Of a DNA stretch of 64,000 nucleotides, positions 5,423-63,140 are shown piece after piece. The position numbers and the translations under genes are program-made. Source of the DNA: Minisyncoccota bacterium. Its GTDB lineage: Bacteria; Patescibacteriota; Minisyncoccia; Phycocordibacterales; UBA918. The notes beneath the pieces are model-generated. The model was not told the origin of the DNA. It was given only the letters and a program-made list of their open reading frames with translations, and ran no database searches. The number at the start of each line of letters is the position of its first letter. Position 1 is the stretch's first letter. Where the stretch lies: NCBI GenBank assembly GCA_021734905.1, contig JAIPIB010000002.1, forward strand, positions 38,167 to 102,166, read 5' to 3'.

Positions 5423-5451
5423 TTAGGGCTAGCATCGCTAGTCCTGCTTTT

Positions 5452-5480
5452 TTGACACAGACAAATTTCAACTGTATAAT
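5452..5480 (+). promoter_or_regulatory. sigma70-type promoter of grpE-dnaK-dnaJ
   Basis: TTGACA (5452-5457), 17-nt spacer, TATAAT (5475-5480), ending 9 nt before the grpE ATG region. Confidence 0.5.
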
Positions 5481-5488
5481 GCCACTCT

Positions 5489-6073: not shown

Positions 6074-6112
6074 CATTTATTATTTTCAATTTTAAATTTT
6101 AAAATACAACAT

Positions 6113-9724: not shown

Positions 9725-9731
9725 AACCTAT

Positions 9732-10863: not shown

Positions 10864-10877
10864 ATTAATAACTATAT

Positions 10878-10906
10878 AAAAAAATGCCGAGGTTGAGAAC
10901 CTCGGC
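10878..10906 (-). terminator. rho-independent terminator after the ATP-grasp gene
   Basis: On the minus strand: gccgaggttctcaacctcggc followed by ttttttt. Confidence 0.6.
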
Positions 10907-10925
10907 AAACTCAAACACTGACTCC

Positions 10926-11936: not shown

Positions 11937-12082
11937 GATTTCTCCTGAGATTGTTGATTGTTGGGTGAGTTAGATTTGTGAACAGACTCTTTCTGCATGT
12001 AAAATGCCATAAAATATAAATTTAGTCAACTGCACCGTAATGTTTCAATACCTTTGCAACACTAAGTTGTATATTGAAACAT

Positions 12083-12801
12083 ATGGCAAAAAACAACTTC
12101 AAAAGACTTAGTTATCTACCAGACAAAATCTGGTGCTCTTGAACTGCGTGGGGATTTTGAGAAGGAAACAATTTGGGCCAGCCTCGATCAAATCGCAGGA
12201 GTTTTTGGTCGGAATAAGTCAGTAATTTCAAGACACCTTAAAAACATTTTTTTGGAGGGCAAATTAGATCGCAACTCAGTTGTTGCAAAAAATGCAACAA
12301 CTGCCAGTGATGGGAAAACTTATCAAGGAGTTTGCTTCAACGTGGGTTTCCCTTGATGTATATGATAAGGAAGAGTTTGAACTGAAAGGAATCACAAAGA
12401 AGAAAGTATCACTCGTAAGCAGTGACCTTTTGTCTGCAATCGGTGATTTGAGAAAGGAATTAGTGAAGAAGAAGGAAGCAACTGAGATGTTTGCATCTGA
12501 ACGTAGGGAAGGGAATATTGAAGGTATTGTCGGAAATGTCATGCAGTCATTCGGAGGTAAGGCAATGTATCCCACAGTTGAAGAGAAGGCCGCTCACCTG
12601 CTCTACTTCATGGTAAAGAACCACCCATTCACCGATGGCAACAAGCGTTCAGGAGCATTTGCATTCATCTGGTTTCTCAGGAAGACCGGTGCGAAGTGAA
12701 GTAGACAAATCAATCCTCCTGCTCTCACACTCCTCATTGCAGAAAGCGACCCATCAAAGAAAGATCAAATGGTCGCCCTCGTAACCCAAATGCTACGGTA
12801 G
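12083..12801 (+). pseudogene. RhuM-family (Fic/Doc-like) gene, disrupted by two frameshifts and an in-frame TGA
   Basis: The C-terminal frame (ASERREGNIEGIVGNVMQSFGGKAMYPTVEEKAAHLLYFMVKNHPFTDGNKRSGAFAFIWFL) matches the RhuM/Doc motif HPFxDGNKR. The N-terminal RhuM block (LVIYQTKSGALELRGDFEKETIWASLDQIAGVFGRNKSVISRHLKNIF) is in another frame. The ATG at 12083 is out of frame across an A6 run (12088-12093). TGA at 12697-12699 interrupts the frame, and homology continues (ALTLLIAESDPSKKDQMVALVTQMLR) to a stop at 12801. Confidence 0.6.
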
Positions 12802-12810
12802 TATCGCTCT

Positions 12811-12850
12811 GAGGCGTGTTGTCTTCGGCAAGACGCCTCTCTTCTTTTAT
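12811..12850 (+). terminator. terminator after the RhuM pseudogene
   Basis: gaggcgt...acgcctc stem followed by tcttcttttat. Confidence 0.5.
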
Positions 12851-12865
12851 ACTTTAGAGAGAATT

Positions 12866-13483
12866 ATGAAAACTGAATTTAATAAGAAAATACTACTTAA
12901 GTACGTTCCCATATACGATGCAAATTTGTCTCTTGCATCAGGTGTCACGCTATCAGACGCTGAAATTTCTGAAGGATATGAATACTGCACACTCTTTGAA
13001 AAAGAGTGGAATTCTGTTGCTCAAGTTCTTGAATATTACACCTCATTAGGATTCAATCTCCCTAATCAGACTCCTGCGTATCTAACTCATCCGAGGGGAA
13101 CCTTTACTCCATTTTCTGACCCCCTTACTCTTCATATAAAGGAGGACAAGGATGATGTTTTGGCGACACTGATTCATGAGTATTGCCATGTACTTTTTCT
13201 ATATCACAAGAACGATATTTTGTCAGACAAAATCTGGAACGCGGTACAAAAAGCATTCCCAACCGAAGATTTTGGTACTCAAGATCACATCACGATAAAC
13301 AAGCTCGCCGAAGGCGGTTTGTATTATTTATGGGGAAGGGAGAAGACAGATGCGATTCTCTCGAAGGAGAGAGCCATGCCTGGTCTCGAGCGAGCGTGGA
13401 AAATACTAGATTCAGCTGAATTAAGGAATACCAACCCTGTTGAAGCAATACTTGAGCTTTGCGCCCAACAGTCTGGAAAATAA
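12866..13483 (+). CDS. hypothetical HExxH-motif protein (putative SprT-like metallohydrolase)
   Basis: 205 aa, no TM. Single HEYCH motif (LIHEYCHVLF). Family not firmly recognised. Confidence 0.45.
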   Translation: MKTEFNKKILLKYVPIYDANLSLASGVTLSDAEISEGYEYCTLFEKEWNSVAQVLEYYTSLGFNLPNQTPAYLTHPRGTFTPFSDPLTLHIKEDKDDVLATLIHEYCHVLFLYHKNDILSDKIWNAVQKAFPTEDFGTQDHITINKLAEGGLYYLWGREKTDAILSKERAMPGLERAWKILDSAELRNTNPVEAILELCAQQSGK

Positions 13484-13503
13484 TTCAGCAACAATCTGAA
13501 TAC

Positions 13504-14079
13504 ATGAAAACTTTATACATTACATACACGCATGGTGATGAGCATCCACCATATGAGATACCAAACGCGCTTGTTGCAAATCCTTTAGCAAGGGAACGAA
13601 ATTTGCGATACATTGAAACTGACCTGAACAGAAGTTTTGGTGTAAAGACACCGGTCTCATATGAAGAAAAAAGAGCTGTTGAATTGGAGGAGATGCTCAA
13701 CGACTATGATCTTGTTGTCGATATTCACAGAACAACAGCACAAACAAAATTTTGTGGCATTGTCACAAAATCTGATGATGCAGTGTATGTACTACCATAT
13801 GGTGTAAGTGCTGTAGTTCTCGTTGAGAATATTCAAAATTCACTTATTTCAAGAGCAAAGCATGGTATAGCATTAGAGTACCCATATGCATATTCGTTGC
13901 ATACTGGTAGCGTTCCACTGTATCGAGTTAAAAAGTTTGTTACTGCAGAACCACACTGGATCGATTTTGAAGAAACCGAACAGGGAATACCATACTTAGT
14001 AAACGAAAAGGCATACCATGGAAAATGTTTTTTACTTGAAAAAATCCATCCAAACATCAACTCAAATTTAAGGGAATAA
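13504..14079 (+). CDS. AstE/AspA (succinylglutamate desuccinylase/aspartoacylase) family zinc hydrolase-like protein
   Basis: The in-frame ATG at 13504 (MKTLYITYTHGDEH) gives the N-terminal metal-binding HG(D/N)E motif. DLNRSFG matches the DLNR motif of the AstE/AspA-M14 fold. Confidence 0.5.
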   Translation: MKTLYITYTHGDEHPPYEIPNALVANPLARERNLRYIETDLNRSFGVKTPVSYEEKRAVELEEMLNDYDLVVDIHRTTAQTKFCGIVTKSDDAVYVLPYGVSAVVLVENIQNSLISRAKHGIALEYPYAYSLHTGSVPLYRVKKFVTAEPHWIDFEETEQGIPYLVNEKAYHGKCFLLEKIHPNINSNLRE

Positions 14080-14172
14080 ATTTATTTAAGGGAATATAAT
14101 CTTAATCTCAAAAGACTAAATTTTGACATGATACAATGTCGAGCATGCTTCGACATAAAGTGCATGTATGCA

Positions 14173-14229
14173 TATGACTTGGTTTTTCTTCACGCTCATT
14201 GCTCCGTTTTGTTTAAAATTGTATTTGTA
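14173..14229 (+). pseudogene. remnant of a DMT/EamA transporter N-terminus
   Basis: Translation MTWFFFTLIAPFCLKLYL* is nearly identical to the N-terminus of the DMT paralog at 16352 (MSWFFFTLIGPFLYAL), then reaches a stop. Confidence 0.45.
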
Positions 14230-14356
14230 AAGAGAAAATGGAACATTCACGATGTTACCAAACAGCACTTTAAGTAGGGCTTTTCTTCATATTGCAATGA
14301 ACTAAAATATATGGTATAATATATTTAGTCAACTTGATCCTTGAAAGGAGTCTGAA

Positions 14357-15280
14357 ATGAACCAAAGTTGGTTTCTGATGGCACTGGTGCCACCGTTACT
14401 GTACGCAGTAACGAATCATATCGACAGAAACCTACTTGGAATTTATTTCAAGGAAGGTGGCGTCGGTACCCTCGTAATAGTCTCATCACTTCTGTCGGTC
14501 ATCCCAATTCCAATTTTCTTATGGGTAGATTCGTCAGTACTGAGTGTTGGCATAGAAAATATGCCAGCATTAGCATTTGCCGGCCTGCTTAATGTAGGTC
14601 TCATCTGGTTTTACCTGAAAGCAATGCAGGATGAGGAGCCAACAGTCGTGATCATCTTCTATTCACTTGTACCAGTACTGGGGCTTGTGTTTGGATATTT
14701 TATTCTCGATGAAACGATTAGCCATATGCAACTCATAGCAATGGCAATAATCATCGTCGGAACAGCACTTGTCTCCTTCGAAATCGGTGAAGCAAATAAC
14801 TTGACGCTGAGAGTCAGTACCCTTGTGAATATGGTTATTGCTTGCACCTGTTGGGCGCTTGAGATGGTGGTGCTCAAAAAAGTTGCACTTGAAGAAAATA
14901 TGTGGAGATCATTATTCTGGGAACATTCCATGATGGTGGTTGTGGGAATCCTCATCTTCATTTTTGTGCCAAAGTACCGTTATCATTTCATGATTGCACT
15001 ACGAAGTAATTCAAAGGCGATCCTATCCCTCAACGCTACCAATGAGGTTCTCTACATCATCGGAAACGTTGTCGGAGCATTTGCATCAATGATGGCGCCA
15101 GTTGCCCTTGTACTCTTGGCACAGCCATTCCAATCGATTTTTGTGTTTGGGATTGCTGTATTTCTAACCAGCTATTTTCCCCGCTTTTCCGCAGAAAAGA
15201 CGGAATTCAAGCACATGCTACAAAAGTTGCTTGCAATCTGTGTGACTGGTATGGGGACATACTTACTCCTAACGTCATAG
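14357..15280 (+). CDS. DMT-superfamily (EamA-like) permease, paralog A
   Basis: 307 aa, 10 TM helices, duplicated EamA architecture. About 50% identical to the ORF at 16352. SD aaaggag before the ATG. Promoter-like TATAAT at about 14312. Confidence 0.8.
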   Translation: MNQSWFLMALVPPLLYAVTNHIDRNLLGIYFKEGGVGTLVIVSSLLSVIPIPIFLWVDSSVLSVGIENMPALAFAGLLNVGLIWFYLKAMQDEEPTVVIIFYSLVPVLGLVFGYFILDETISHMQLIAMAIIIVGTALVSFEIGEANNLTLRVSTLVNMVIACTCWALEMVVLKKVALEENMWRSLFWEHSMMVVVGILIFIFVPKYRYHFMIALRSNSKAILSLNATNEVLYIIGNVVGAFASMMAPVALVLLAQPFQSIFVFGIAVFLTSYFPRFSAEKTEFKHMLQKLLAICVTGMGTYLLLTS

Positions 15281-15310
15281 TGCGGAGTCGGATAGCTCAT
15301 CTTAAACTCA

Positions 15311-15348
15311 AATCGCGTAGCCATAAGCTACGCGATTTTCTTTTTTTT
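15311..15348 (+). terminator. rho-independent terminator after DMT paralog A
   Basis: aatcgcgtagc cataa gctacgcgatt stem followed by ttcttttttttt. Confidence 0.7.
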
Positions 15349-15436
15349 AGTCCTTTGAGTTATCCACTGTCTCTTTAAATGCTATTGTCAAACAGCATTT
15401 TGTATTGTACAATAATTAAATTCTAATAATATTTCT

Positions 15437-16345
15437 GTGATTCCTAAATTTCCAAAATTTAAAAGCATATCTGTTGAGGACAGTAATGAAATACGTCGCT
15501 TTTCAAACCGCTTTCAACCGTATTCTTTTTTTAACTTCTCTAGTCTATGGGCATGGAACACTGAGAAAAAGTGTAAAATATCAAAGCTTAATGGTAATTT
15601 GGTGATGTTTTACACTGATTTTATAACATCGAAACCTTTCGTTACTTTTTTAGGTACGAATAAGGCTAAAGAGACGGCGGCGGAGCTCATCGAGTTTATA
15701 AAGAAGAGCAAAACTGGAGCAGCACTTCGATTCATAACAGAGGAAACAAAAACTTGTTTATTACATTCAGATTTTCATATTAAAGAAGACAGAGATAATT
15801 TTGACTATATTTTTTCAACATCAAAACTCGCTCTTTCAGAAGGTCCTGATTTTAAACAAAAACGTCAACACGCAAACAGATTTTTACGTGAAAATCCAGA
15901 CGCTCGTCTAGTACACGAAGATATGCATGATTTAGCTGTACGAAAGAAGCTTACGGGTGTAATTCGTCAATGGGAGAAAAACAAAATAGATACTAAAAAA
16001 CAATGCAATCTCAAACATGAGCAAGCGGCAATAAATCGTCTACTAAAGAATGATACCAATCGTAAACTCATTCTTTCATGTGTATATGTAGATGAAACGA
16101 TGGTTGGTTTTAGTATCGATGAGATACTTTTAAGTGGTTATGCTATGGCACACTTCATCAAAGCAGATTACTCATACAGGGGTGTTAGCGAGTATATTAA
16201 TGAAAAAGTCGCTGCTCATTTAATTACCCACGGTATTGAACTATGGAATTGGCAGCAAGATTTAAATTTTGACGGTCTTCGTAAACTTAAAATGAGTTAC
16301 CGTCCTGTGCACTTCTTAAAGACATACACCATCTCAAAAAAATAA
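15437..16345 (+). CDS. DUF2156 / MprF C-terminal-domain-like protein (putative aminoacyl-tRNA-dependent aminoacyltransferase, GNAT-pair fold)
   Basis: 302 aa, soluble. Motifs FFNFSSLWAWN, RDNFDYIF...G.DFKQKRQHANRF and C-terminal NFDGLRKLKMSYRPVHF correspond to conserved blocks of the lysyl-PG synthase domain and stand-alone DUF2156 proteins (NLYaWR, FDYIY...KKR...NRF, GLRRFKEKFKP). Recalled from memory, not searched. Confidence 0.62.
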   Translation: MIPKFPKFKSISVEDSNEIRRFSNRFQPYSFFNFSSLWAWNTEKKCKISKLNGNLVMFYTDFITSKPFVTFLGTNKAKETAAELIEFIKKSKTGAALRFITEETKTCLLHSDFHIKEDRDNFDYIFSTSKLALSEGPDFKQKRQHANRFLRENPDARLVHEDMHDLAVRKKLTGVIRQWEKNKIDTKKQCNLKHEQAAINRLLKNDTNRKLILSCVYVDETMVGFSIDEILLSGYAMAHFIKADYSYRGVSEYINEKVAAHLITHGIELWNWQQDLNFDGLRKLKMSYRPVHFLKTYTISKK

Positions 16346-16351
16346 TATTCT

Positions 16352-17272
16352 ATGAGTTGGTTCTTTTTCACACTTATCGGCCCATTTCTGTATGCGCTCA
16401 CTAACCATATAGATAAATTATTACTTGAAAAATATTTCAAGAAGAGTGGAGTAGGTACGCTTATGCTATTTTCGACACTTGTGTCGATATGCGTATTGCC
16501 ATTAATCTATTATTTCGATCAAACTGTATTTGGCGTTGGTATTAAAAATATTGCAGTATTGGCAACTGTTGCGGCTTTGAATGTTCTTGTTCTATATTTT
16601 TACCTTCTTGCACTTAAGGATGAGGAAGCTTCTATTGTGATTGTATTTTACCAACTTGTACCTGTTTTTGCATACATACTAGGATATTTCATTCTCAGTG
16701 AAACGCTAACGCAAATACAACTTATCGCAATGGCAATTGTTATTTTTGGTACAACAATTATTTCTTTTGAGATAGACGTCGAAAACAACTTCAAGCTAAG
16801 AAAAAATACTATTTTTCTTATGACCGCAGCATCTTTTTGTTGGGCATTGGGATCAGTAATTTTTAAGGCCGTTGCGCTTGAGGAAAATGTTATGCGGTCT
16901 CTTTTCTGGGAACATTTTGTTTTGGCAATAATCGGAGTTGGTATCTTTTTCTTTGCCAAGTCTTCAAGGAAACATTTCATTAAAGAAATTGAAATTAATT
17001 CCTCTTCAATACTTTCATTAAACTTCCTTAATGAATCGCTATATATACTTGGTAATTCTGTTTTTGCATACGCATTTCTTCTCGCTCCGATATCACTTAT
17101 TCTTCTAACAAATTCATTTCAGCCGATCTTCGTTTTCATTATTGGTATAATCCTAACAATTTTCTTTCCAAAAATTTCAGCTGAAAAGATTCAAGCAAAG
17201 CACCTTTGGCAAAAAGTTCTTGCCATTGCAATAACTGGAGCGGGAACATACCTCCTGTTGATTTCGTCGTAG
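16352..17272 (+). CDS. DMT-superfamily (EamA-like) permease, paralog B
   Basis: 306 aa, 10 TM helices. Co-linear with and clearly homologous to the ORF at 14357. Confidence 0.8.
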   Translation: MSWFFFTLIGPFLYALTNHIDKLLLEKYFKKSGVGTLMLFSTLVSICVLPLIYYFDQTVFGVGIKNIAVLATVAALNVLVLYFYLLALKDEEASIVIVFYQLVPVFAYILGYFILSETLTQIQLIAMAIVIFGTTIISFEIDVENNFKLRKNTIFLMTAASFCWALGSVIFKAVALEENVMRSLFWEHFVLAIIGVGIFFFAKSSRKHFIKEIEINSSSILSLNFLNESLYILGNSVFAYAFLLAPISLILLTNSFQPIFVFIIGIILTIFFPKISAEKIQAKHLWQKVLAIAITGAGTYLLLISS

Positions 17273-17364
17273 CTTAAAAACGGAATTTAACCTATTAATT
17301 AAAGAGTATGGCCCATCTGTGTATATATAAAAAATAATCAATGTCGGAATGATATAATAAGCTG

Positions 17365-17523
17365 ATGGATATGAAGTCAAGGACATTGTTTCTTTTTATG
17401 TTTGTTCTGTGTATTTTCTCTATTGCTGCTTTATATTACAAAGCTATCATTCAACAAGATTTTGACATTGTGGAGGTGTACGAAGATTCTGAGGAAAATG
17501 ACACTGAAATTGTCTCAGAATAA
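17365..17523 (+). CDS. small secreted/membrane peptide (52 aa): hydrophobic N-terminus, acidic C-terminus
   Basis: Hand translation gives MDMKSRTLFLFMFVLCIFSIAALYYKAIIQQDFDIVEVYEDSEENDTEIVSE. Not in the track. TATAAT about 10 nt upstream. Speculative. Confidence 0.3.
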   Translation: MDMKSRTLFLFMFVLCIFSIAALYYKAIIQQDFDIVEVYEDSEENDTEIVSE

Positions 17524-17534
17524 ATTTCTAATCA

Positions 17535-18077
17535 ATGAAAAAAATATCACCAAAAGCAATTAATGAGGTCCGAATCGAAATGAAACCCTCTAAAATGTTA
17601 AAGGGTGAAGTTGGCGTCTTTGCGACACGCAATCTTAAAAAGAATTCTATCGTGGCGGAAGCAAGTCAATTCTTATGTGAAAGGTTTATTCCGTGGGAAA
17701 AATATAAAGAGCTTGATCCAATTACTCAAAGGAAGGTTATGGATTATTGTTCTGGAGATGTTAAAGGTTTTTACGCTCCTCCAGATTTAAACTACTTATC
17801 TATAGCATGGCATTTAAACCACAGTTGTGAACCGAATGTTGGATTTGATGCGGGCTATAATTTTGTAGCAATGAGGAATATTAAGAAGGGAGAAGAATTG
17901 TTTTGGGATTATTGCTATGACGAATCAAATCCTGATTTCAAGATGAAATGTTCATGTGGTTCAAAAAAATGCAGAGAAGTAATTACTGGTGAAGACTGGA
18001 GAAAACTCATAAAAAATAAAAAGGCTTGGCAGTATCTATCAACTGATATTAAAAAGTTAGCAAAAAATGTTAAATAA
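17535..18077 (+). CDS. SET-domain protein (putative protein lysine methyltransferase)
   Basis: NHSCEPN and ELFWDY SET motifs, followed by post-SET cysteines (CSCGSKKCR). Confidence 0.75.
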   Translation: MKKISPKAINEVRIEMKPSKMLKGEVGVFATRNLKKNSIVAEASQFLCERFIPWEKYKELDPITQRKVMDYCSGDVKGFYAPPDLNYLSIAWHLNHSCEPNVGFDAGYNFVAMRNIKKGEELFWDYCYDESNPDFKMKCSCGSKKCREVITGEDWRKLIKNKKAWQYLSTDIKKLAKNVK

Positions 18078-18087
18078 TTCTTAGCTT

Positions 18088-19800
18088 ATGGATACCTCAA
18101 ATTTAATCATATGCACTGACGCAAGTCCTGATTTTGTGGGTATTTTTGACTTAAGCATTGCTCCTGCCATGCTTTACTATTCCTATATTCCAATTGTTTT
18201 TATATCACTACTGCTAGGTGTGTTTGTTTTGATACAAAATCGATTTTCATTAATAAGCAAAATCCTTTTTCTAATTACACTCCTTTTCTCAATATTTATT
18301 GCGAATGAACTTCTGCAATGGGTAGCGGTTCCTGCTGGAATTATGTACTTTGCATGGTCTCTTTCTCTATTACTACATTTCTTTATTGTTTTACTGACAT
18401 TTTACTTTGTTTATTTGTTCATAAATAAAAATGACTTTTCCTTTTCTCAAAAAGTTTTATTTATGCTAGTTAGTCTTCCAGCAATACTATTACTCCCAAC
18501 AAATTTGAATGTTCCAGCCTTTGACGTTGACTGGTGTGGTGCAATAACTGGACCACTTTGGTATTACCTCTACGCATTTGAAATTGCCACAGCAACGTTC
18601 TTATTGTCATGGGGCATAAAGTTGATCAGAAAATACTACCGCCTTAAAGACAGAGCCTTACTGCCATCAATCTATCTTCTTTTTGGTGCATCGTTCTTCT
18701 TGTTTGTTTTCTTTGGTTCATACTTTGTTAGTGAAATAGCAGACCTTTATGAAATTAATCTATATGAATTTAATTTCATCGGCCCATCTGGAATGCTTAT
18801 CTTTATTGGAGTGTTCTCTTTCATGATTGTAAAATTTAAAACATTTAATATTAAGCTCCTCGGGGCACAAGCGCTTGTGGTTGCACTGTGGTTCCTTGTG
18901 GATTCACTGCTCTTTGTGGCGCAGTCTACAACAACGCGCACTGTTGCTGGCGTTACTCTTCTTATCACAACAATCGCTGGTTACTTCCTTGTGCGAAGCG
19001 TTAAGAAAGAAGTGCAACAAAGGGAAGAACTTGAGATCCTTACCGACCAACTCGCAAAGGCGAACGCACGCCTGAAGCTCTTAGATAAGATGAAATCAGA
19101 ATTTGTCTCTATTGCATCGCACCAACTTCGAAGTCCACTTACATCTATTCGTGGATACGCTTCTATGCTTGCGGAAGGTTCTTACGGCAGACTTCCGGTA
19201 AAAGCGCAGGAGGCTGCTGCAAATATTGCTGACTCGAGTAAATACATGGCAATGTCTATTGAGGATTATCTTAATGTGTCTCGTATTGAAGCCGGGAACA
19301 TGAAGTATGAAATGAGCGACTTTAATCTCAAGGATGCTGCTGAAAAGATTGTCGACGAGATGCGACCGGTTGCTATGAAGAAGGGCCTCGTGATGGTTTT
19401 TCGTTCTGACTGTAACGGAAGTAATCAGATTAATGCAGATATTGGTAAAACACGCCAAGTCATTATGAATCTCCTCGACAACTCAATGAAATATACTCCA
19501 AAGGGAACCATTACAGTTGTTGCTCATGATGATATTAAGAAAAAAAAGATGTACGTTACTATTAAGGATACCGGCGTCGGTATGAGTAAAGAAACACAAG
19601 AAGAAGTCTTTGATAAGTTTGTCCGCGCAAAGAACGCCAACAACATCAATGTCACAGGAACAGGTCTCGGCCTCTTTGTTGCAAAGAAAATGGTTACTGA
19701 GATGAAGGGAAGAGTATGGGCCGAGTCAGAAGGAGAGGGGACTGGGTCTACATTCCACATAGAATTTTCACTACTGCCTGGGAAACCCTCAGTGAGATAA
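18088..19800 (+). CDS. sensor histidine kinase with multi-TM (about 7 TM) N-terminal domain
   Basis: N-terminal 250 aa with multiple TM helices, a coiled coil, then H-box SHQLRSPLTSIRGYASML, N-box DNSMKYT and G-boxes DTGVGM / GTGLGL. No response regulator nearby. Confidence 0.85.
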   Translation: MDTSNLIICTDASPDFVGIFDLSIAPAMLYYSYIPIVFISLLLGVFVLIQNRFSLISKILFLITLLFSIFIANELLQWVAVPAGIMYFAWSLSLLLHFFIVLLTFYFVYLFINKNDFSFSQKVLFMLVSLPAILLLPTNLNVPAFDVDWCGAITGPLWYYLYAFEIATATFLLSWGIKLIRKYYRLKDRALLPSIYLLFGASFFLFVFFGSYFVSEIADLYEINLYEFNFIGPSGMLIFIGVFSFMIVKFKTFNIKLLGAQALVVALWFLVDSLLFVAQSTTTRTVAGVTLLITTIAGYFLVRSVKKEVQQREELEILTDQLAKANARLKLLDKMKSEFVSIASHQLRSPLTSIRGYASMLAEGSYGRLPVKAQEAAANIADSSKYMAMSIEDYLNVSRIEAGNMKYEMSDFNLKDAAEKIVDEMRPVAMKKGLVMVFRSDCNGSNQINADIGKTRQVIMNLLDNSMKYTPKGTITVVAHDDIKKKKMYVTIKDTGVGMSKETQEEVFDKFVRAKNANNINVTGTGLGLFVAKKMVTEMKGRVWAESEGEGTGSTFHIEFSLLPGKPSVR

Positions 19801-19941: not shown

Positions 19942-20676
19942 GTGAAAACCCTAATAGTTCTATTTGTAACGACAATGTCTCAAATGGCGTTTGCATACGA
20001 TTCGCCATGGGAGAAGACTCTTGCCTATCCACCAACACTGACCGGTGAAGAACTTGCCCTGGCAGAAACCGAACTCTTGCCAGAAAATGTCGAGAAAACT
20101 AAAATTGCTCTTGCGAGTGACTATGGTCAAAAATTCGATGACACATTGAACGAGGCTTCGCCTTATGTCGAGATCGTCATGAAGACACGCCGTGGCAAGG
20201 ATCCGGCAAATAGCTTGAATGACGTCAGTGCCTACGTAGAATTCCCATTGACGGCAACTCTATCGCTCTGGGTAACTGGAACAGATGACGAGACCTTCAA
20301 GGGAACCTACGTCGGCCTAGCCAGAAAATTTGGCAATTGGCAGGTTGCACTTGGTGGAGGAAGCGTCGTATATGGCGATACTCGTCACAATGTCATCAAT
20401 CCGTGGATCTTGTATTCTACAGATAGTTACGAGGCGTATTTACACGCTGAGTACTACGGAAAGGAGTCGGACAATCGGTGGTGGTATAAAGCCTTTGCTG
20501 ACAAGAAGTTTGGCAACACTAGCTTTGGCCTCTACGGCGAAGCCGGCGTTGGGATAGGTCCTCGGCTCTCATGGCAGGTTACCAAAAACTTGAAATTTTG
20601 GGTTATGGTGCCAGTCGCACTTCAGCCGAATGAAGGGAAAATCAAATTCATGGCGGCAGCTGTCGTCATGTTCTAG
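19942..20676 (+). CDS. secreted protein with OMP-like C-terminal beta-signal (GTG start)
   Basis: Strong SD gggaggaaggag before GTG. Signal peptide MKTLIVLFVTTMSQMAFA. Aromatic-rich. C-terminus ...KFMAAAVVMF ends in Phe with alternating hydrophobics. GC higher than surroundings. Confidence 0.5.
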   Translation: MKTLIVLFVTTMSQMAFAYDSPWEKTLAYPPTLTGEELALAETELLPENVEKTKIALASDYGQKFDDTLNEASPYVEIVMKTRRGKDPANSLNDVSAYVEFPLTATLSLWVTGTDDETFKGTYVGLARKFGNWQVALGGGSVVYGDTRHNVINPWILYSTDSYEAYLHAEYYGKESDNRWWYKAFADKKFGNTSFGLYGEAGVGIGPRLSWQVTKNLKFWVMVPVALQPNEGKIKFMAAAVVMF

Positions 20677-21760: not shown

Positions 21761-22297
21761 ATGTCAAGAAAATATCAAATTGGAGTCATGGGCTCTGCTC
21801 AAGATCTTAACTATTCTAAGGAGATTGAACAATTAGCAGAAGATATCGGACTCGAAATTGCTAAAAAAGGTCACATCGTTGTATATGGAGCTGAAAAAGA
21901 TTACGATTCTCTTTCGACAGCTGCAGCACGCGGAGCAAAGAAGGTAAATGGTCTTACTGTGGGAGTTACTTATGGAAAAGGTAAAGATATATGGGACAAA
22001 GAAGGGAACACCGACATTATTATCAGTACTGGCATTGAACGTGGTGGAGGACGTGAATTTGTCCTTGTAAATTCCTGTGATGCAATTATTGCAATATCAG
22101 GAGGGTCTGGCACTTTAACTGAGCTAGCTATTGCATATCAAGCAGATATTCCAATGGTTGTTATGAGGGGAACTGGTGGTTGGTCTGACAAACTAGCTGA
22201 TACTTTTTTTGATGCGCGTGAAAGACGTAAAGTGATTGGCGCAGCAAATGCACAGCAAGCGGTTCAAAATGCTTTGGATCAGATTTCCGGACAGTAA
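21761..22297 (+). CDS. LOG/TIGR00725-like Rossmann-fold protein
   Basis: GVMGSAQ...IAISGGSGTLTELAIAY pattern (GGxGTxxE) of the LOG/DprA-like SLOG families. Confidence 0.55.
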   Translation: MSRKYQIGVMGSAQDLNYSKEIEQLAEDIGLEIAKKGHIVVYGAEKDYDSLSTAAARGAKKVNGLTVGVTYGKGKDIWDKEGNTDIIISTGIERGGGREFVLVNSCDAIIAISGGSGTLTELAIAYQADIPMVVMRGTGGWSDKLADTFFDARERRKVIGAANAQQAVQNALDQISGQ

Positions 22298-26929: not shown

Positions 26930-29900
26930 ATGTATCTACGGCGACAGCATTTTTTAGTATGTGCGCTTCTGAGTTGCATTCTTGTCTTTGCTCCGGTCTC
27001 TCACACACAGGCATTCTCACTCGATGACTCATCTCTCTGGAGAGGTACTGCGACACTCTTTGCCGGTGTGAGTTCTTTCACCTGTGGCAGTTTCTTCTCG
27101 TACATACTCAATCCACTTGGTCTCTGTGCAACGCCCAACTTTGACGGGGAACCACTCGCACAGAACGATACCCTCCATGACGCAATGGAGGGAATTGTCC
27201 CCGATGAAACACCAACGACCATACCCATTGCACCAACGTACATCACCAATACATACAACACCAATCCAACCACTATCGTACGAGACACAGTGAGAGAGGT
27301 GGTCTACCATACCGAGAGTAATACACCACCTGATCTCTCTCAGTTTGTGACCCGTGACTTCGTGAATAAACAGTCCAATAGAATTTATGATGTTCAGGGA
27401 GATGCACAGAGTACCAATGCTGCATCATTCACCACCAATCTCCTCACGGTATCAGGGGACAGCACCGTATCAGGACTCCTTACTGTTGACGGTGCACTCT
27501 CATCACTCGCATACACCTCTGCACCATACCTCACTGCCACAGATGCTGCTGCCACCTCTACCTTTGCGGGTAGTGTGACGGTTGATGGGCGTGTGGGGAT
27601 TGGGACGACGAGTCCAAAACAAAAATTACATATTGTTGGTAACGCATATACAGAAACACTCATTGAATCTTTGACAGCTGATTCTGCACTGGCACTAAAA
27701 TATGCATCTGGAAACACTGGTGGCATGTTCTTTTACTCAGGTGCCACTGCTGCTGGGTCACTATATGGAGGCAATGATAACAGTCTCAACTTACAAACAT
27801 ACACAGCAAGCCCATTAAAGTTTCTTACAAGCGGAACTGAACGCATGCGTATTTCTGATACTGGAAATGTTGGGATAGGGATAGCTTCACCAAATACTAG
27901 ATTCCAAATTGTAAATGGGTCAGTTTCCGGAAATGACGCTTTTGCCCAGTTCGGAAGTACAGTTGGAGGAACAGGTGAACTAGGCTTGCAGTTTGGACGA
28001 AGTGGAGCTACGTCTGGTTCATTAATAATTCAAGGAGTAAAAGAAGGTACTGGAGCAAATAATTTGTCCCTTCAACCAAGTGGAGGAAACATCGGTATCG
28101 GCACCACCTCTCCAACCTCTAAACTTACCGTCAATGGTGACATACGCATAGAGACAGGCTCAGGAGGACAACTCATCTTTGCAGACGGAAGCACTATGTC
28201 CTCAGCAGCACTTGGTTCAGCAGCAGCACTCTCAAACATCACAGACGCCATCATCACCGGAGACTCAGACACCAACAGTTCAGGTAATATACTATTCAAA
28301 ACCGGCTCCAATGACCGTATGACCATACTAAACAATGGAAATGTGGGAATTGGGACAGTGGGTCCGGGAACACCTCTCCAAGTAAATCACGGAGGAGGAG
28401 CTGATGGTACGAGGCAAAATGTCCTGACAGTTTCTACTGCCGGTTCTGTTACCTATGGTGGGTATATCGGCAATCGTGCTGTATCTGCAAATACGCATCA
28501 AGGCATGTTTATTGAGGGAGGGGGATCTTTAACCCTTGGAGCAAAGAGCTATAACATTGATTTTATAACGGGTGCAGGCATTACTGCTAGTGGCGATACA
28601 AATTTGAGAATGCGAATAGATTCTTCAGGCAACGTCGGCATCGGCACGACAGAGCCGGGCCTGCGTCTGGAAACAAAAGCTGCGGCCGCTGGACTACCAG
28701 CCACTTCTGGCACATCGCAAACTGGAATTATGCGCTTGAGTCAGGGGATTGGCACTGGTGTGGTTGATTTTGGTTTTGGCGGAACGGCTGGATATGGTTG
28801 GATACAGGCTGTTGATAGTGGTAATTTAGCAACCAACTATGGATTATTGTTGAATCCAAACGGCGGCAACGTCGGTATCGGGACGACGAATCCAACACAG
28901 GAACTGACAGTATATGGTGCAGGAAACAATTCTACTGAAATTAATATAATAGAGCCGGATGCAGTCTCCGAATCAATAATTAATTTTGGCGATTCCATGT
29001 CAGGGACGGCACGATATGAAGGTAGAATCTCTTATAACCATACGACTAATGCTTTAAATCTCAGCACAAATCATTTGGTCAGCACGCCCGAACTGACATT
29101 AAAGAATGGAAACGTCGGTATTGGCGTCGCGTCACCGCAGGCAATGCTTGATATTGTTGGTAACGATACCATTCTTAAAGTACGCGACACAAGAACAACA
29201 GGAGGTAACGCGACTTTACAGCTACAGGCAGAAGGTCAGCTTGCCCAGCTTAAATTCTATTACGGAGACAGATTCGCTATCGATAATGGTGGAGGAACGG
29301 AATGGCTTACAATAAAGCAGAACGGAAACATTGGCATCGGCACCACTTCACCACAGGCAAAACTAAGCGTAAAGGGAAGTGGCACCGGTTCAGGCTTCCT
29401 CGCACAGTTCACCGACAGCGCAGATAGTCCCAAGTTCACGATTTTGGATAATGGAAATGTTGGGATTGGTACGGCGATCCCAGGGTCAAAATTAACTGTG
29501 CAAGGAGGAAGTTCGGGAGCTGTTGATTTTGCTGTTATGCATTCTACTGGGAATGCGGGATTGTATTTCTCAACTCTTGCAAGCGGTTCTGGTAGATTAG
29601 TTTTTGCTAATTCCGCAAGTACAATAGTTAACCAAATCGGTATTTCAGATAATGAATACACATACTTCAATAATGGTAACGTAGGTATAGGAACATCGAC
29701 GCCAAGCGCAAAGTTGGATGTGGTCGAAGGAATTATTAGAATTTCGGGCACAAGTGATGCATTCGACCAAACTTTATCTATTCAGAATAATGTGAACAAG
29801 GTTCTTAAGCTTACTGTGGGTTCTAACGGTGGAGGGACGGCATGGTACACACAGCCAAACACAGGAACTCTCGGCGTGGATACTGGGATGGATTTACGTT

Positions 29901-32389
29901 TCTCGGCTGGCGCAGCGGAACGAATGAGAGTTACAAGCGCTGGCAACGTCGGCATCAGCACCACCTCGCCATCAGCAAAACTCGACGTCTGGGGTAATTT
30001 GAAAGTAGGCACCAGTTCAACCCCTACGTTGTTTGTTGATGCCGCGAGCGGAAACGTCGGTATTGGTACAAATAATCCTACTGGTAAGATTCAAATCTAC
30101 GACAATACTGATGCCCTAATACAAAGCACGATAGTAAACGATAGCGCAGGTACTTCGGCATGGTCGAGAGTGGGGGCCGGTGCTAGTTTCTCATCCACAT
30201 TCGTAGAACATTTCAGTAATAGTTATTCAGGTACTGGAGCAAGGCAAACGGGATCAGGAAATCTAACGACAAGTGGTTCTGGGGGATTGAGTATTTCTAC
30301 AGAAACCGCATCAACACCAATTCGCTTTTATACAAGTGGACTCGCCGCATCGAATGAGCGTATGCGTATCGATTCAGCTGGCAACGTCGGTATCGGGACG
30401 ACGAGTCCACAAGGTTCTCTCACTATCAACAGTGGTCAATTTACTGTCCCTGTTGGATCTGCTGGAGCGCCATCAATTACATTTAATGACGATTTGAATA
30501 CTGGTATATATCATAATGCGGCAGATATCATGTCATTCTCTGCTGGTGGAAACACTATTTTTGAATTCTTTAATGATACAAATGGGGCTATTTCTAGAGT
30601 CGGTCTTCAACTTAAAGGTGTTACAGCAACAGGCATACCGTCACTCTCTTTTGCTTCGGATGTCGATACTGGATTCAGTTCTCCTGGTGTTAATATCGTT
30701 AGTCTGATTACTGGAGGAAATGAAAGACTACGCATCGATTCAGCTGGCAACGTCGGGATTGGGACAACAAATCCGCAGCGTATTCTTGATTTATCAAATA
30801 CTAGCGGGGTATTTCTAAGAGGAGACCGAACAAGTGGTGCGGGCGATGCACTGACTATTGTAGGCACAGGACAAGCTGCGGTTGAGGGAGCTCGAATGGT
30901 CATTAATATGGAAAACACTACTGATGCGTCTTCTAATATACAGTTTTATACGCACAATGGAGCTGCACTAGGCGAGAGAATGAGGATAACACAAGCCGGA
31001 AACGTCGGGATTGGCACCACTTCACCATCAGGCTTACTTCATGTACAAAAAGATCAAAATAGCCCAACAAGAATTCAAATTACAAATGAAAACACTGGGG
31101 CAAGTTCCCAAACTGGACTTATGGTTACAAACTCTGCACTTCCAAATTATTATTATACCGCAGGTTTAATGGGGACAAATTTTTCAACAAACGGTTTATT
31201 TGAACCAAATAAAGGTGTAATTTCAGTTGGAGGTGAAATTGATGGGTTAAATATTTTCACACAAAAATCTACAGCTCCATTAATCTTTGGAACTAACGGT
31301 GCGGAGAAAATGCGCATCTCAAACACTGGCAACGTCGGGATTGGAACAACATCACCAACATCAAGGCTCGATATAAAACAATCTGTTGATGCTTTCGGAG
31401 GCGGTATAAGATTAAATCAAGTCGCTGACTCCGATTACGCAGAAATTGTTTCTGCGGGCGATAGGTTGGTATTTGGTTTGAATGGGTATGAAAGAATATC
31501 GATATTAGAGAATGGTAACGTCGGAATTGGAACAACATCACCAACATACAAGTTAGAGGTGGCTGGCACCATAGCTTCAGAATCAAGCGGTGCATACAAC
31601 CTAGGAGCAGCAGGAAGAGACTGGGGATGTCTCTATTACAACTCAGGCACTCTCGGTACCTGCGCATCCGACGAAAGGCTCAAAGAGAACATCAAAACAC
31701 TCACCTTTACAAATGGCACAAGTACTGCACTCAATAAAGTCGCAAACCTTGAACTCCACACCTTTAACTTCAAGAATGCTCCAGGAAGTACCTACAAGGG
31801 ACTTATTGCACAGGAAGCACTCACTGTCGCACCAGAACTTGTTGAACTCGGTAGTGACGGATACTACCGAGTGAAGTACGGTGACATTCAATGGCTCGTC
31901 CTTGAAGCACTGAAGGAACTGTATGGAAAAGTGCAGGCACTACAAGATAAGTTTGTTGATGGTGTGCTAACACTTACGAGTGCCAATGTTGATTATGTTC
32001 AATCACGTGAAATTTGCCTTAGCGACGACACGGGAACAAGTTGTATTGATCGACAGAAACTTCAAAGATTGTTAGAAGGGGATGATGCTTTAAACAATTC
32101 AGATCAAGACAATGTGTCTACATCACAAGATCCTGAACCGACAACTGACACTGTGGATGATGATACGACCAATACAGCCTCATCTAGCGCCCAAGCAAAC
32201 ACCACCACAGAAGTCACTACCCAAGATGATGAGAATTCTGACATTTCACAAGAACAAACACCTACTGAATCTGATGTTATAACTACTCCCACTGAAGAGG
32301 AGGTGCCTTTAAGTGAGTCGACGGTTGAAAATCCTACTACCACTGAACCTGAAGTGACAACTCCAACAGAGACATCTCCTACTCAGTAG
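26930..32389 (+). CDS. giant secreted repeat-rich fibre protein with C-terminal Peptidase-S74 intramolecular chaperone (autocleavage) domain and acidic T/P/E-rich tail
   Basis: 1819 aa. Signal peptide MYLRRQHFLVCALLSCILVFAPVSHTQA. About 20 tandem 45-55 aa repeats carrying [ER]MRI.S.GNVGIGTTSP..KL.V. C-terminal block GAAGRDWGCLYYNSGTLGTCASDERLKENI...YKGLIAQEALTVAPELVE...YRVKYGDIQWLVLEALKEL matches the endosialidase/tail-fibre chaperone domain (S74) with catalytic Ser at 31667-31669. Confidence 0.85.
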   Translation: MYLRRQHFLVCALLSCILVFAPVSHTQAFSLDDSSLWRGTATLFAGVSSFTCGSFFSYILNPLGLCATPNFDGEPLAQNDTLHDAMEGIVPDETPTTIPIAPTYITNTYNTNPTTIVRDTVREVVYHTESNTPPDLSQFVTRDFVNKQSNRIYDVQGDAQSTNAASFTTNLLTVSGDSTVSGLLTVDGALSSLAYTSAPYLTATDAAATSTFAGSVTVDGRVGIGTTSPKQKLHIVGNAYTETLIESLTADSALALKYASGNTGGMFFYSGATAAGSLYGGNDNSLNLQTYTASPLKFLTSGTERMRISDTGNVGIGIASPNTRFQIVNGSVSGNDAFAQFGSTVGGTGELGLQFGRSGATSGSLIIQGVKEGTGANNLSLQPSGGNIGIGTTSPTSKLTVNGDIRIETGSGGQLIFADGSTMSSAALGSAAALSNITDAIITGDSDTNSSGNILFKTGSNDRMTILNNGNVGIGTVGPGTPLQVNHGGGADGTRQNVLTVSTAGSVTYGGYIGNRAVSANTHQGMFIEGGGSLTLGAKSYNIDFITGAGITASGDTNLRMRIDSSGNVGIGTTEPGLRLETKAAAAGLPATSGTSQTGIMRLSQGIGTGVVDFGFGGTAGYGWIQAVDSGNLATNYGLLLNPNGGNVGIGTTNPTQELTVYGAGNNSTEINIIEPDAVSESIINFGDSMSGTARYEGRISYNHTTNALNLSTNHLVSTPELTLKNGNVGIGVASPQAMLDIVGNDTILKVRDTRTTGGNATLQLQAEGQLAQLKFYYGDRFAIDNGGGTEWLTIKQNGNIGIGTTSPQAKLSVKGSGTGSGFLAQFTDSADSPKFTILDNGNVGIGTAIPGSKLTVQGGSSGAVDFAVMHSTGNAGLYFSTLASGSGRLVFANSASTIVNQIGISDNEYTYFNNGNVGIGTSTPSAKLDVVEGIIRISGTSDAFDQTLSIQNNVNKVLKLTVGSNGGGTAWYTQPNTGTLGVDTGMDLRFSAGAAERMRVTSAGNVGISTTSPSAKLDVWGNLKVGTSSTPTLFVDAASGNVGIGTNNPTGKIQIYDNTDALIQSTIVNDSAGTSAWSRVGAGASFSSTFVEHFSNSYSGTGARQTGSGNLTTSGSGGLSISTETASTPIRFYTSGLAASNERMRIDSAGNVGIGTTSPQGSLTINSGQFTVPVGSAGAPSITFNDDLNTGIYHNAADIMSFSAGGNTIFEFFNDTNGAISRVGLQLKGVTATGIPSLSFASDVDTGFSSPGVNIVSLITGGNERLRIDSAGNVGIGTTNPQRILDLSNTSGVFLRGDRTSGAGDALTIVGTGQAAVEGARMVINMENTTDASSNIQFYTHNGAALGERMRITQAGNVGIGTTSPSGLLHVQKDQNSPTRIQITNENTGASSQTGLMVTNSALPNYYYTAGLMGTNFSTNGLFEPNKGVISVGGEIDGLNIFTQKSTAPLIFGTNGAEKMRISNTGNVGIGTTSPTSRLDIKQSVDAFGGGIRLNQVADSDYAEIVSAGDRLVFGLNGYERISILENGNVGIGTTSPTYKLEVAGTIASESSGAYNLGAAGRDWGCLYYNSGTLGTCASDERLKENIKTLTFTNGTSTALNKVANLELHTFNFKNAPGSTYKGLIAQEALTVAPELVELGSDGYYRVKYGDIQWLVLEALKELYGKVQALQDKFVDGVLTLTSANVDYVQSREICLSDDTGTSCIDRQKLQRLLEGDDALNNSDQDNVSTSQDPEPTTDTVDDDTTNTASSSAQANTTTEVTTQDDENSDISQEQTPTESDVITTPTEEEVPLSESTVENPTTTEPEVTTPTETSPTQ
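27590..31560 (+). repeat. in-frame coding tandem repeats (GNVGIGT units) inside the fibre gene
   Basis: Recurrent nucleotide units aacgtcgg(c/t)at(c/t)gg(c/g)ac(c/g)ac and peptide GNVGIGTTSP occur about 20 times. Confidence 0.7.
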
Positions 32390-41057: not shown

Positions 41058-41537
41058 ATGAAGCGACTGCTTTTAACAACAATACTTATCGGAGTGATCT
41101 ACATACTCGGAACACTTGTGTTTACAGAAATTCGAACATTTGTTGATGATGCCTCACTCACAATGAGTGGCGTCAACTTAACATCCGCTCGGACAGCAAT
41201 ACTTAAAAATTATAATGAAAGTATCCTTCCTGAAAACGAACTCTTAAGTGATGATGCGGCATTTAAAATTAATCCAGTCTACATAAATACAGACAAAAGA
41301 ATTGATCTCGTTGCTTCAGTTAATTCTGAAGCAACATGCGGGACTGGAGGATGTATAGTGACACTGTACATCCAAAATGACGAGAGAGAGTACATTCCGC
41401 TCAATTTTGCTTACACGGTGAAGGAATTATCTGTAAAAAACAGCATTACAAACGAAATGCATGATTTGGAGATCAATAATGACGATTCAATGATACTTAA
41501 ATGGAACGGTGAGGAATACTCTCTGAATGTTCAGTAA
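41058..41537 (+). CDS. hypothetical exported protein
   Basis: N-terminal TM/signal (LLLTTILIGVIYILGTLVF). CTGGC motif. No family recognised. Confidence 0.45.
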   Translation: MKRLLLTTILIGVIYILGTLVFTEIRTFVDDASLTMSGVNLTSARTAILKNYNESILPENELLSDDAAFKINPVYINTDKRIDLVASVNSEATCGTGGCIVTLYIQNDEREYIPLNFAYTVKELSVKNSITNEMHDLEINNDDSMILKWNGEEYSLNVQ

Positions 41538-42740: not shown

Positions 42741-43202
42741 TTATCTATTATTCGACAAGTTCACAATTCTTATAAAATGTTTTTTCGCTACAGGTTGGAC
42801 GGATAATCGCATGCCCTTTTGAGTAACCAGCATATCATCAAAAAATGGGTCTCTCTTTAATTCAGTTAGTGTAACGGGTTCTGAAAATCTAGCAATAAAT
42901 TTTACATCAATTGCGAACCACCGTGGAGAGCTTTTTGTAGATTTATCATCGAATTTGTATGATGAAGAATCAAATTGTGTTGGATCTGAATATGCACTGC
43001 CCGATATTTCAGCCACACCAGCAATACCAATGGGTTTCGTGTTTGAATGATAAAAAAGAACTCTATCGCCATTTTCCATTTCGTCACGGATAAAATTACG
43101 TGCCTGATAATTACGCACATCATCCCACATACTCACTCCATCTCGCATAAGATCGTCGACTGAGTAGCATGACGGCTCAGTTTTCATTAACCAGTACTTC
43201 AT
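42741..43202 (-). CDS. EVE (PUA-like) domain protein
   Basis: MKYWLMKTEPSCYSVDDL...MWDDVRNYQARNFIRDEM..GDRVLFYHSNTKPIGIAGVAEI is typical of the EVE domain. Confidence 0.7.
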   Translation of the reverse strand: MKYWLMKTEPSCYSVDDLMRDGVSMWDDVRNYQARNFIRDEMENGDRVLFYHSNTKPIGIAGVAEISGSAYSDPTQFDSSSYKFDDKSTKSSPRWFAIDVKFIARFSEPVTLTELKRDPFFDDMLVTQKGMRLSVQPVAKKHFIRIVNLSNNR

Positions 43203-58986: not shown

Positions 58987-59035
58987 TGAAGTATTCTAGC
59001 ATGGGTTATGTGATAGTATAGGGATATAATTTTTA

Positions 59036-63112: not shown

Positions 63113-63140
63113 AATAGCATCAACCTCTAAATACCCTAAA

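Follow-up and report, generated by a model that had tools for sequence, protein, structure and literature searches.

The window analysed here comprises 64,000 nucleotides (64 kb) of contig JAIPIB010000002.1 from a Minisyncoccota bacterium (GCA_021734905.1). An open reading frame (ORF) on its forward strand, 26930..32389 (+), starts with ATG and encodes the 1819-aa precursor of a putative surface fibre. Coordinates and length are exactly those of the initial annotation, a brief description of the stretch made from its letters. The identical protein is deposited at NCBI as MCF7815698.1 and MCF7857097.1, named 'tail fiber domain-containing protein', and was also found in a Logan assembly (SRR12088351). 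The NCBI copy stems from a Candidatus Pacebacteria/Paceibacterota metagenome-assembled genome (MAG) and lies on a 181,883-bp contig. NCBI taxonomy currently assigns this name to Minisyncoccota, the Patescibacteria. The genes for AspRS and PepA (M17) are located upstream of the fibre gene, those for ScpA and ScpB downstream. A promoter and terminator scan gave uninformative results at chance level. The parts of the gene described below are all on the forward strand.

The precursor begins with a predicted signal peptide (aa 1-28, 26930..27013) that ends at a probable signal peptidase I site. As had been proposed, hydropathy reveals a basic n-region (MYLRRQH) and a hydrophobic core at aa 8-26 (Kyte-Doolittle values up to 2.07 over 19 aa and 2.75 over 15 aa), followed by the site TQA/FS. 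The junction ..T[QH]A/FSL is common to the fibre protein and its close relative P0029, which reads THA/FSL. A lipoprotein modified at Cys16 (LLSC) was considered and rejected: the core runs on past this residue, which is not conserved in relatives. A transmembrane (TM) helix at aa 41-67 was dismissed as well, since the hydropathy reaches only about 1.3; the segment is instead a conserved Cys-bracketed loop. This hydrophobic loop, Cys52-x13-Cys66 (CGSFFSYILNPLGLC, 27083..27127), has the form (W)C-x10-14-C that is kept in a subfamily of the Candidate Phyla Radiation (CPR, Patescibacteria), and is a candidate base or anchor element. Sequence conservation delimits a further N-terminal module at aa 103-182 (27236..27475) with the blocks TYITNTYNTNPTTIVRD, FVTRDFVNKQSNRIYD and SFTTNLLTVSGDSTVSG. 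The whole protein contains eight Cys, two of them within the signal peptide. The remaining Cys fall into three neighbouring pairs (52/66, 1567/1578 and 1696/1705), each conserved in the CPR subfamily, as expected for disulfide loops of an exported protein.

The fibre shaft, aa 220-1555 (27587..31594), is composed of 17 'capping loop' modules. Their core G[NRK][VI]G[IV][GS] is present 17 times in the protein; in 2000 shuffles it appeared 0.0135 times on average and never more than once. The extended consensus reads (E/D)RMRI..xGNVGIGTTSPxxKLxV. Cores are spaced 36-122 aa apart with a median of 82.5, and the units are modules of ~80 aa. The initial annotation had described about 20 repeats of 45-55 aa; the repeats are real and far beyond chance, but their number and length had to be corrected. 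No tandem repeat was found in the gene at the DNA level, which indicates that the modules are old and diverged. In a search of PDB sequences, aa 1348-1554 matched the crystallised Bdellovibrio bacteriovorus fibre Bd2133 (8OND, E = 7.5e-19), and Bd1334 and Bd3182 matched more weakly. This homology upholds the beta-helical fibre suggested initially. Foldseek on the predicted shaft returned the Bdellovibrio fibres Bd2133, Bd1334 (two entries), Bd3182 and Bd2439. Phage tail-fibre PHROGs share the shaft repeat family (phrog_9942, E = 6e-82; phrog_18345, E = 3e-70). The Bdellovibrio proteins belong to the 'mosaic adhesive trimer' (MAT) family defined by Caulton et al. 2024 (PMC10769870). In a MAT shaft, capping loops interrupt a trimeric beta-helix, and the loop consensus is the motif repeated in the present protein, whose shaft of capping-loop beta-helix modules is thus that of the MAT superfamily. 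B. bacteriovorus HD100 has 21 MAT paralogues, displayed on the surface of the predator; 13 of the 21 end in an S74 domain with SDxxxK (PMC10769870).

Peptidase_S74 (PF13884) is the single Pfam domain found in the fibre protein, and an NCBIfam search gave nothing meaningful. The profile matches aa 1580-1638 (31667-31843) with E = 5.7e-11 and 43 bits, well above the gathering cut-off (22), and covers profile positions 1-57 of 58. Together with a coiled-coil helix, this core forms the intramolecular chaperone, aa 1580-1674 (31667..31951). It opens with the catalytic motif S1580-D-E-R-L-K1585 (31667..31684). The Ser codon at 31667-31669 is the one assigned before, the Lys codon is 31682-31684, and the cut is predicted between A1579 and S1580. 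An alignment of 36 homologues shows no variation at S1580, D1581 and K1585, nor at G, A and Q of IAQE. In an AlphaFold2 (AF2) model, computed for the monomer, the chaperone part reaches a predicted local distance difference test score (pLDDT) above 90. It is modelled as a small beta/alpha unit with a long coiled-coil helix, and the C-terminus structurally matches the chaperones of MyRF (7DC3), endosialidase (3GW6), GA-1 (3GUD) and T5 (4UW8). Profile, motif and model agree with the S74 domain of the initial annotation.

The mature fibre would end with aa 1556-1579 (31595..31666), YNLGAAGRDWGC(1567)LYYNSGTLGTC(1578)A, a Cys-bracketed loop that stops at the scissile bond and represents a signature of the CPR subfamily. 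Behind the chaperone, a conserved extension at aa 1675-1717 (31952..32080) consists of a helix (FVDGVLTLTSANVDYVQSRE) and a Cys1696-Cys1705 module (ICLSDDTGTSCIDRQKLQRLLEG). A polyanionic low-complexity tail, aa 1718-1819 (32081..32386), comprises 26 D+E, 0 K+R and 46% T/S/P, in line with the acidic Thr/Pro/Glu-rich tail noticed earlier. Cleavage would release a fragment of 240 aa (26.2 kDa, pI 4.05) carrying the Cys module and the polyanionic tail from a mature chain of 158.5 kDa (aa 29-1579). Most S74 homologues have only ~90-105 aa after the cut site, whereas members of the CPR subfamily have 200-360 aa. The additional part is of a conserved type and comprises a helix, a Cys module, an acidic or Pro/Thr low-complexity tail and sometimes a surface Ig-like domain. 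Weak BLAST matches that placed the post-chaperone module at the N-termini of other fibres proved spurious, as this Cys module was seen nowhere but behind the chaperone.

In two distant genomes (L011, GC 0.59; L017, GC 0.365), the extension is encoded by a separate ORF on the same strand ~3 kb downstream of the fibre ORF (L011, 3390-8783 and 11664-13028; L017, 169-759 and 3225-4124). The fibre ORFs continue after S74 with the N-terminal part of a split intein (C[V]TGDT...TxNHPYL; Pfam Intein_splicing positions 4-74 of 155). The downstream ORFs start with the C-terminal intein part (...THNF[VI].N.I[YF]AHN/T; positions 112-155 of 155), followed by the Cys module, a surface Ig-like domain and a Pro/Thr tail. 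PemK/MazF-like and PD-(D/E)XK plus zinc-finger genes and a fourth, unannotated gene lie between the intein halves at both loci, and L011 harbors an NYN gene in addition. The arrangement is of the 'fractured gene' type described by Dassa et al. 2009 (PMC2677866). Retention of the extension by a split intein suggests that the extension matters. The S74 domain might serve trimerisation only, with cleavage lost and the acidic C-terminal region kept on the mature protein. A long, conserved extension with Ig-like surface domains in relatives would indeed be more sensible if retained. This reading is extremely improbable, because Ser, Asp and Lys of SDxxxK are invariant and the same motif cleaves in Bd3182. 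Bd3182 cleaves itself at its Ser, and the exchange S782A blocks the reaction (PMC10769870).

The fibre protein belongs to a subfamily specific to CPR bacteria. The pre-cleavage signature YNLGaaGxxWGCLYYNxGTxGTCA/SDxRLK is common to six proteins. These six sequences, used as a query against species-representative genomes, identified 12 loci, 11 of them in the CPR subfamily. The subfamily loci are 54-66% identical over tip and chaperone and differ in GC from 0.34 to 0.66. They originate from Paceibacteria/Paceibacterota, Saccharibacteria, Nomurabacteria, unlabelled 'bacterium' MAGs and one Rhizobiaceae-labelled contig; one MAG has two copies. The twelfth locus, from a Verrucomicrobiales MAG, shows 30% identity and lacks the signature. 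The best IMG/VR relatives reach 39% at most over tip and chaperone. Comparison of 54-66% identity within CPR with at most 39% to viral relatives indicates a subfamily that is old within CPR rather than a recent import from phages. Three traits are shared by its members: the N-module with the Cys loop and YITNxYxTNPTT, the Cys-bracketed tip and the long post-chaperone extension. The closest relative in tip and chaperone (66% identity) is encoded on the Rhizobiaceae-labelled contig (L007, JAWKWH010000004.1, 459 kb, GC 0.57). Its 927-aa reading frame (P0133 = 923 aa) has a full CPR-type N-module; the contig could be mis-binned CPR DNA, or the gene may have been transferred.

An exhaustive HMMER search with aa 28-215 as query found 22 representative clusters among 1.84 billion proteins. 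The CPR-type N-module was present in 14 of 14 members inspected. These members typically have a signal peptide, then the (W)C-x10-14-C loop, a Pro/Thr-rich linker and three conserved blocks (Y[IV]TNxY[IV]TNPTT[IV][IV]RE; [FV]V[ST]RxLFxxQxDxIxD; SFxTxLLTVSGN). The shaft downstream has from 2 to more than 20 modules; some members then finish with an S74 tip and an acidic tail, others without S74. The same N-module is thereby combined with WGCLYY-type S74 ends (P0131-P0133), other S74 junctions (P0137, P0143) and non-S74 ends (P0134, P0142). Judged by sequence, such interchangeable tips on a common base follow the MAT pattern, but the base module is the subfamily's own. A beta-rich N-domain of ~130 aa directly follows the signal peptide in all 21 B. 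bacteriovorus MATs (PMC10769870). A fragment of Bd2133, rebuilt from the PDB match, gave nine weak matches as query, none of them from Bdellovibrio. P0134 and P0142 carry a cytoplasmic helix-turn-helix (HTH) domain and one TM helix where the signal peptide would be, followed by the same N-module. Such an arrangement puts the N-terminal side next to the membrane and the C-terminal tip at the far end. The HTH domains are excisionase-like, and PF12728 is also present in P0014 and P0059; the proteins are giant fibres anchored in the membrane, with a domain of DNA-binding type in the cytoplasm.

Another member with the CPR N-module, P0144 (999 aa), has a shaft insert of ~450 aa that looks like a pectate-lyase-like right-handed beta-helix and hints at enzymatic tailspikes. 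S74 chaperones were first described on endosialidase tailspikes. Both points would suit a secreted tailspike-like polysaccharide depolymerase which digests host capsule or cell wall and is not an adhesin. For the present protein this is highly improbable: Pfam, NCBIfam and PHROGs revealed no catalytic domain in it, and the shaft is wholly of the capping-loop type known from non-enzymatic MAT fibres.

Homologues are numerous. Of 8,000 candidates that were scored, at least 3,357 reached E ≤ 1e-5. Almost all among the 120 homologues listed have 1,500-3,200 aa, and the best non-self matches are 27-30% identical overall. Among the matches listed, sources include several Patescibacteria groups, Elusimicrobiota, Flavobacteriales, Akkermansiaceae and Margulisbacteria. 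An N-terminal hydrophobic signal was detected in 28 of the 119 top homologues with a start codon. The signal-bearing homologues sampled (P0004, P0007, P0032) have cellular neighbours, e.g. SecA, Obg, GatB, MreB and RRF. The signal-less homologues sampled (P0010, L019, L020) start directly with fibre sequence and are located in phage genomes: P0010 lies among dozens of small unknown ORFs on a phage-like contig, L020 from IMG/VR adjoins portal, tail and virion proteins, and L019 adjoins virion structural proteins. Presence of the signal peptide separated cellular from phage copies in every case sampled. A single phage type behind the many homologue contigs of ~65 kb was considered and discarded, as the P0004 contig is cellular and the P0010 contig phage-like. 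None of the other cellular copies has the pepA-scpA synteny. The rarity implied by the initial annotation was overstated, given the cellular S74 fibres of Bdellovibrio (PMC10769870), the existing NCBI annotation and the number of homologues.

Several of these loci show peculiarities of their own. L003 and L004, the loci of P0032, share the fibre gene and, downstream, genes for a 907-aa DUF87/TrwB-like ATPase and a 1060-aa protein; the upstream gene is MreB at one locus and RRF at the other. The difference suggests a rearrangement, or a mobile boundary where the fibre gene begins. L005 encodes two S74-terminated proteins (5245-8001, 918 aa; 10001-18208, 2735 aa) within 5 kb in a cellular context. 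This pair is indicative of sets of paralogous fibres, which Bdellovibrio has as well; two copies (L009, L013) are likewise present in a Paceibacterota MAG.

The strong shaft matches to tail-fibre PHROGs and the many homologues that are true phage genes raise another explanation, a phage-derived fibre that serves a prophage, a tailocin or an extracellular contractile injection system (eCIS) encoded elsewhere, or the remnant of a decaying prophage. S74 fibres are used by eCIS (PMC12923769). A signal peptide is incompatible with particle assembly in the cytoplasm. The surroundings were scanned by comparing all ORFs of at least 150 aa in the window with Pfam (E ≤ 0.001), and every ORF with a match has a housekeeping function. 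No integrase, terminase, portal, capsid, tail or eCIS gene was detected in the 27 kb upstream or the 31 kb downstream, and the window contains no tRNA gene and no Rfam element, hence no hallmark of an integration site. The placement between pepA and scpAB, with no phage gene nearby, was therefore described correctly, and nothing phage-like speaks for a prophage within the window. The ORF is intact and its catalytic motif conserved. The genomes that carry the CPR subfamily range from 34 to 66% GC, and all gene contexts examined were cellular. Taken together, a fibre that serves such a particle or remains from a prophage is very unlikely.

Base composition is in agreement. The fibre gene is richer in GC than its neighbours, as reported (0.453 against 0.38-0.42). 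The excess falls mostly on codon positions 1 and 2 (0.50 against ~0.45) and is explained by the amino acid composition of a Gly/Thr/Ala-rich protein. The GC3 value of 0.357 lies inside the neighbours' range of 0.25-0.37 and matches the host genome. A foreign origin was consequently rejected as the cause of the GC difference.

With a probability of roughly 0.7, the gene encodes a secreted, cellular, trimeric adhesive fibre of MAT-like architecture that belongs to a CPR/Patescibacteria-specific subfamily and binds a host. Domains, motifs and predicted fold support export, chaperone-led folding and cleavage, and the context is non-phage. Trimerisation, actual cleavage, the mode of anchoring, fibre length and the ligand would follow by homology or analogy with known systems. 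A role in attachment to host or prey is plausible by analogy with Bdellovibrio and with the reduced-genome, episymbiotic biology of cultivated CPR bacteria.

The nearest known systems are the Bdellovibrio MATs (Bd3182, 8ONC/8OJN; Bd2133, 8OND). They share with the present protein a chromosomal cellular gene, a signal peptide, a shaft of V-G-I-G-T-x-x-P-x-x-K-L capping loops and a C-terminal S74 domain with SDxxxK, and both come from a bacterium living on other bacteria. The CPR protein differs in being nearly twice as long (1819 against ~1000 aa) and in its own N-module, restricted to the 22 representative clusters, and Cys-bracketed tip. CPR bacteria are presumably monoderm, so that, unlike in Bdellovibrio, there would be no outer membrane to cross.

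The phage proteins K1F endosialidase (3GW6), GA-1 neck appendage gp12 (3GUD) and T5 L-shaped fibre pb1 (4UW8) have the same S74 fold, the Ser-Lys motif and the chaperone at the C-terminal end. Phage fibres lack a signal peptide, attach to the virion by their N-terminus and are encoded in structural gene modules, whereas the present gene has a signal peptide and housekeeping neighbours. The virion tail-fibre features tested, a phage structural context and the lack of a secretion signal, were both absent. R-type pyocin fibres, named alongside phage proteins in the initial annotation, rely on a separate chaperone and are not known to use S74. The eukaryotic myelin regulatory factor MyRF, a transcription factor tethered to the membrane, is cleaved so that its N-terminal portion comes free of the membrane anchor at the C-terminus. 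Unlike the MyRF ICA domain (7DC3), the present protein has no C-terminal TM segment, and its predicted product is an extracellular fibre. Trimeric autotransporter adhesins (YadA/Hia) are comparable by analogy as long, repetitive, obligately trimeric surface fibres whose trimerisation is driven by a C-terminal domain, and one weak homologue carries this label from JGI. They have no S74 homology and retain their C-terminal outer-membrane beta-barrel as anchor; the present protein is predicted to lose its C-terminal domain by the cut and to face the cell with its N-terminus.

The proposed biogenesis starts with Sec export of the precursor by means of the N-terminal signal peptide. The N-module (Cys52-Cys66 loop and YITNxYxTNPTT block) would be kept at the cell surface as the fibre base, which is suggested by its conservation and by the TM-anchored variants. 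Outside the cell, three S74 chaperones may associate and nucleate a triple beta-helix of 17 modules, which would fold from the C- to the N-terminus without ATP, as homology with the endosialidase, T5 and Bd3182 systems implies. The Ser1580/Lys1585 dyad, evident from motif and fold, would then cut the bond A1579/S1580. The cut would release an acidic 26-kDa fragment with the chaperone, coiled coil, Cys module and polyanionic tail, and leave a kinetically stable mature fibre of ~3 x 158 kDa. Its distal end would be formed by the last beta-helix module and the Cys1567-Cys1578 loop and may bind a glycan or protein of the host surface, a location chosen by analogy with Bd3182 and T5 pb1. In crystallised MATs, Bd3182 extends over 60 A with 135 residues, and Bd2133 covers 142-150 A with ~370 residues (PMC10769870). 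On this scale, a shaft of ~1,360 aa would be about 55-60 nm long.

Several observations weigh against the adhesive host-binding fibre. The signal peptide call follows from hydropathy and the -3/-1 rule, a heuristic. Known anchoring motifs (sortase signal, conserved lipobox, C-terminal TM segment) are absent from the protein, and the AF2 model of the N-terminal 202 aa, built from 12 sequences, has a pLDDT of 44 for the presumed anchor region. The closest relatives are 27-30% identical outside tip and chaperone, which makes functional transfer loose. The context view covers 64 kb of the 182-kb contig. The favoured model gives no role to the long, conserved extension behind the chaperone, and the split intein that joins it to the chaperone in some relatives indicates that it is probably more than a discarded part. 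Pfam recognises no ligand-binding domain at the tip.

The last point also favours a surface fibre with a different task: it could be a general envelope coat or spacer, attach the cell to abiotic surfaces or a biofilm matrix, or protect it from phages as a decoy or shield. Signal-bearing homologues in Flavobacteriales and Akkermansiaceae, not known as episymbionts or predators, are in accordance with such a task, as is the inclusion of non-predator members in the MAT study (PMC10769870). The characterised cellular relatives, on the other hand, are prey adhesins (PMC10769870). Mosaic tips on a conserved base are expected of recognition proteins under diversifying pressure, and the fact that a reduced genome has kept a gene of 5.5 kb speaks for an important role in interaction. 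A coat, spacer or decoy is therefore considered unlikely, and host binding is preferred.

The other genes of the window comprise, in its first part, those for S4, RpoA, GrpE, DnaK, DnaJ, an F420-ligase-like protein, an ATP-grasp protein, EamA transporters, an MprF-like protein, a SET-domain protein and a histidine kinase. TrpRS/TyrRS-type, SLOG and GNAT genes precede AspRS and PepA. ScpA and ScpB are followed by D-Ala-D-Ala carboxypeptidase, MraY, FtsW, MurG, GluRS, an M23 peptidase and a racemase. The last part encodes EVE, ROK, PGI, an exonuclease, UDG, cyclophilin, a CtpA-like protease, CorA, CysRS, DnaB, RecR, RmuC and TruB. The RimK-like ATP-grasp gene (10926-11936, -) lies in the most GC-rich kilobase (0.506 against ~0.40), adjoins the F420-gamma-glutamyl-ligase-like gene (9660-10457) and may have been acquired by transfer. 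In this reduced CPR genome, a SET-domain protein of the lysine methyltransferase type (17535-18077, +) is encoded directly upstream of the histidine kinase (18088-19800, +). Two SLOG/LOG-like proteins (LDcluster4/'lysine decarboxylase'-type) and one EVE-domain protein are found in the same 64 kb at 21761-22297 (+), 46568-47314 (-) and 42741-43202 (-). Six ORFs of 156-444 aa have no Pfam family at the threshold applied: 61868-63202 (-), 19942-20676 (+), 4838-5422 (+), 12866-13483 (+), 41058-41537 (+) and 58996-59466 (-).

Cellular S74 fibres have been published (PMC10769870), and the gene is generically annotated at NCBI. Beyond the retrieved literature are the presence and the special form of S74 fibres in CPR bacteria. 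MAT-bearing taxa beyond Bdellovibrio are tabulated as Omnitrophica, Micavibrio, Uabimicrobium and the FCB-group, and CPR is not among them (PMC10769870). A literature search found no publication linking S74 or tail-fibre-like proteins to CPR bacteria. Recent CPR reviews and a Saccharibacteria transposon sequencing study name pili, a type IV secretion system and VCBS, dockerin and FN3 proteins, and no tail-fibre-like or S74 protein. Host finding and binding by ultrasmall episymbionts are largely unknown (PMC12206443). Type IV pili and a few lectin-like proteins have been implicated so far in host binding (PMC10633639).

A wider proposal is made tentatively and is rather doubtful: a Patescibacteria-wide, phage-related host-recognition system, built from the CPR base, variable shafts and S74-matured exchangeable tips, would set which host can be attached to, and the fragment cut off at the C-terminus would be functional. 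That fragment could be a cap masking the tip until contact, or a released factor. A function of its own is suggested by its conservation, its elaboration with Ig-like domains in relatives and the intein that joins it to the chaperone in two distant genomes.

The fibre gene and its subfamily provide concrete candidates for determinants of host range. The subfamily also occurs in Saccharibacteria MAGs, and Saccharibacteria include cultivated, genetically tractable species (PMC10633639). A C-terminal self-cleaving chaperone would be a neat route to the folding of a giant trimer outside the cell without ATP. The protein does not represent a new kind of system, but a testable candidate for host recognition where host recognition is an open problem. 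If the proposed function is true, phages, predators and episymbionts would use one receptor-binding architecture.

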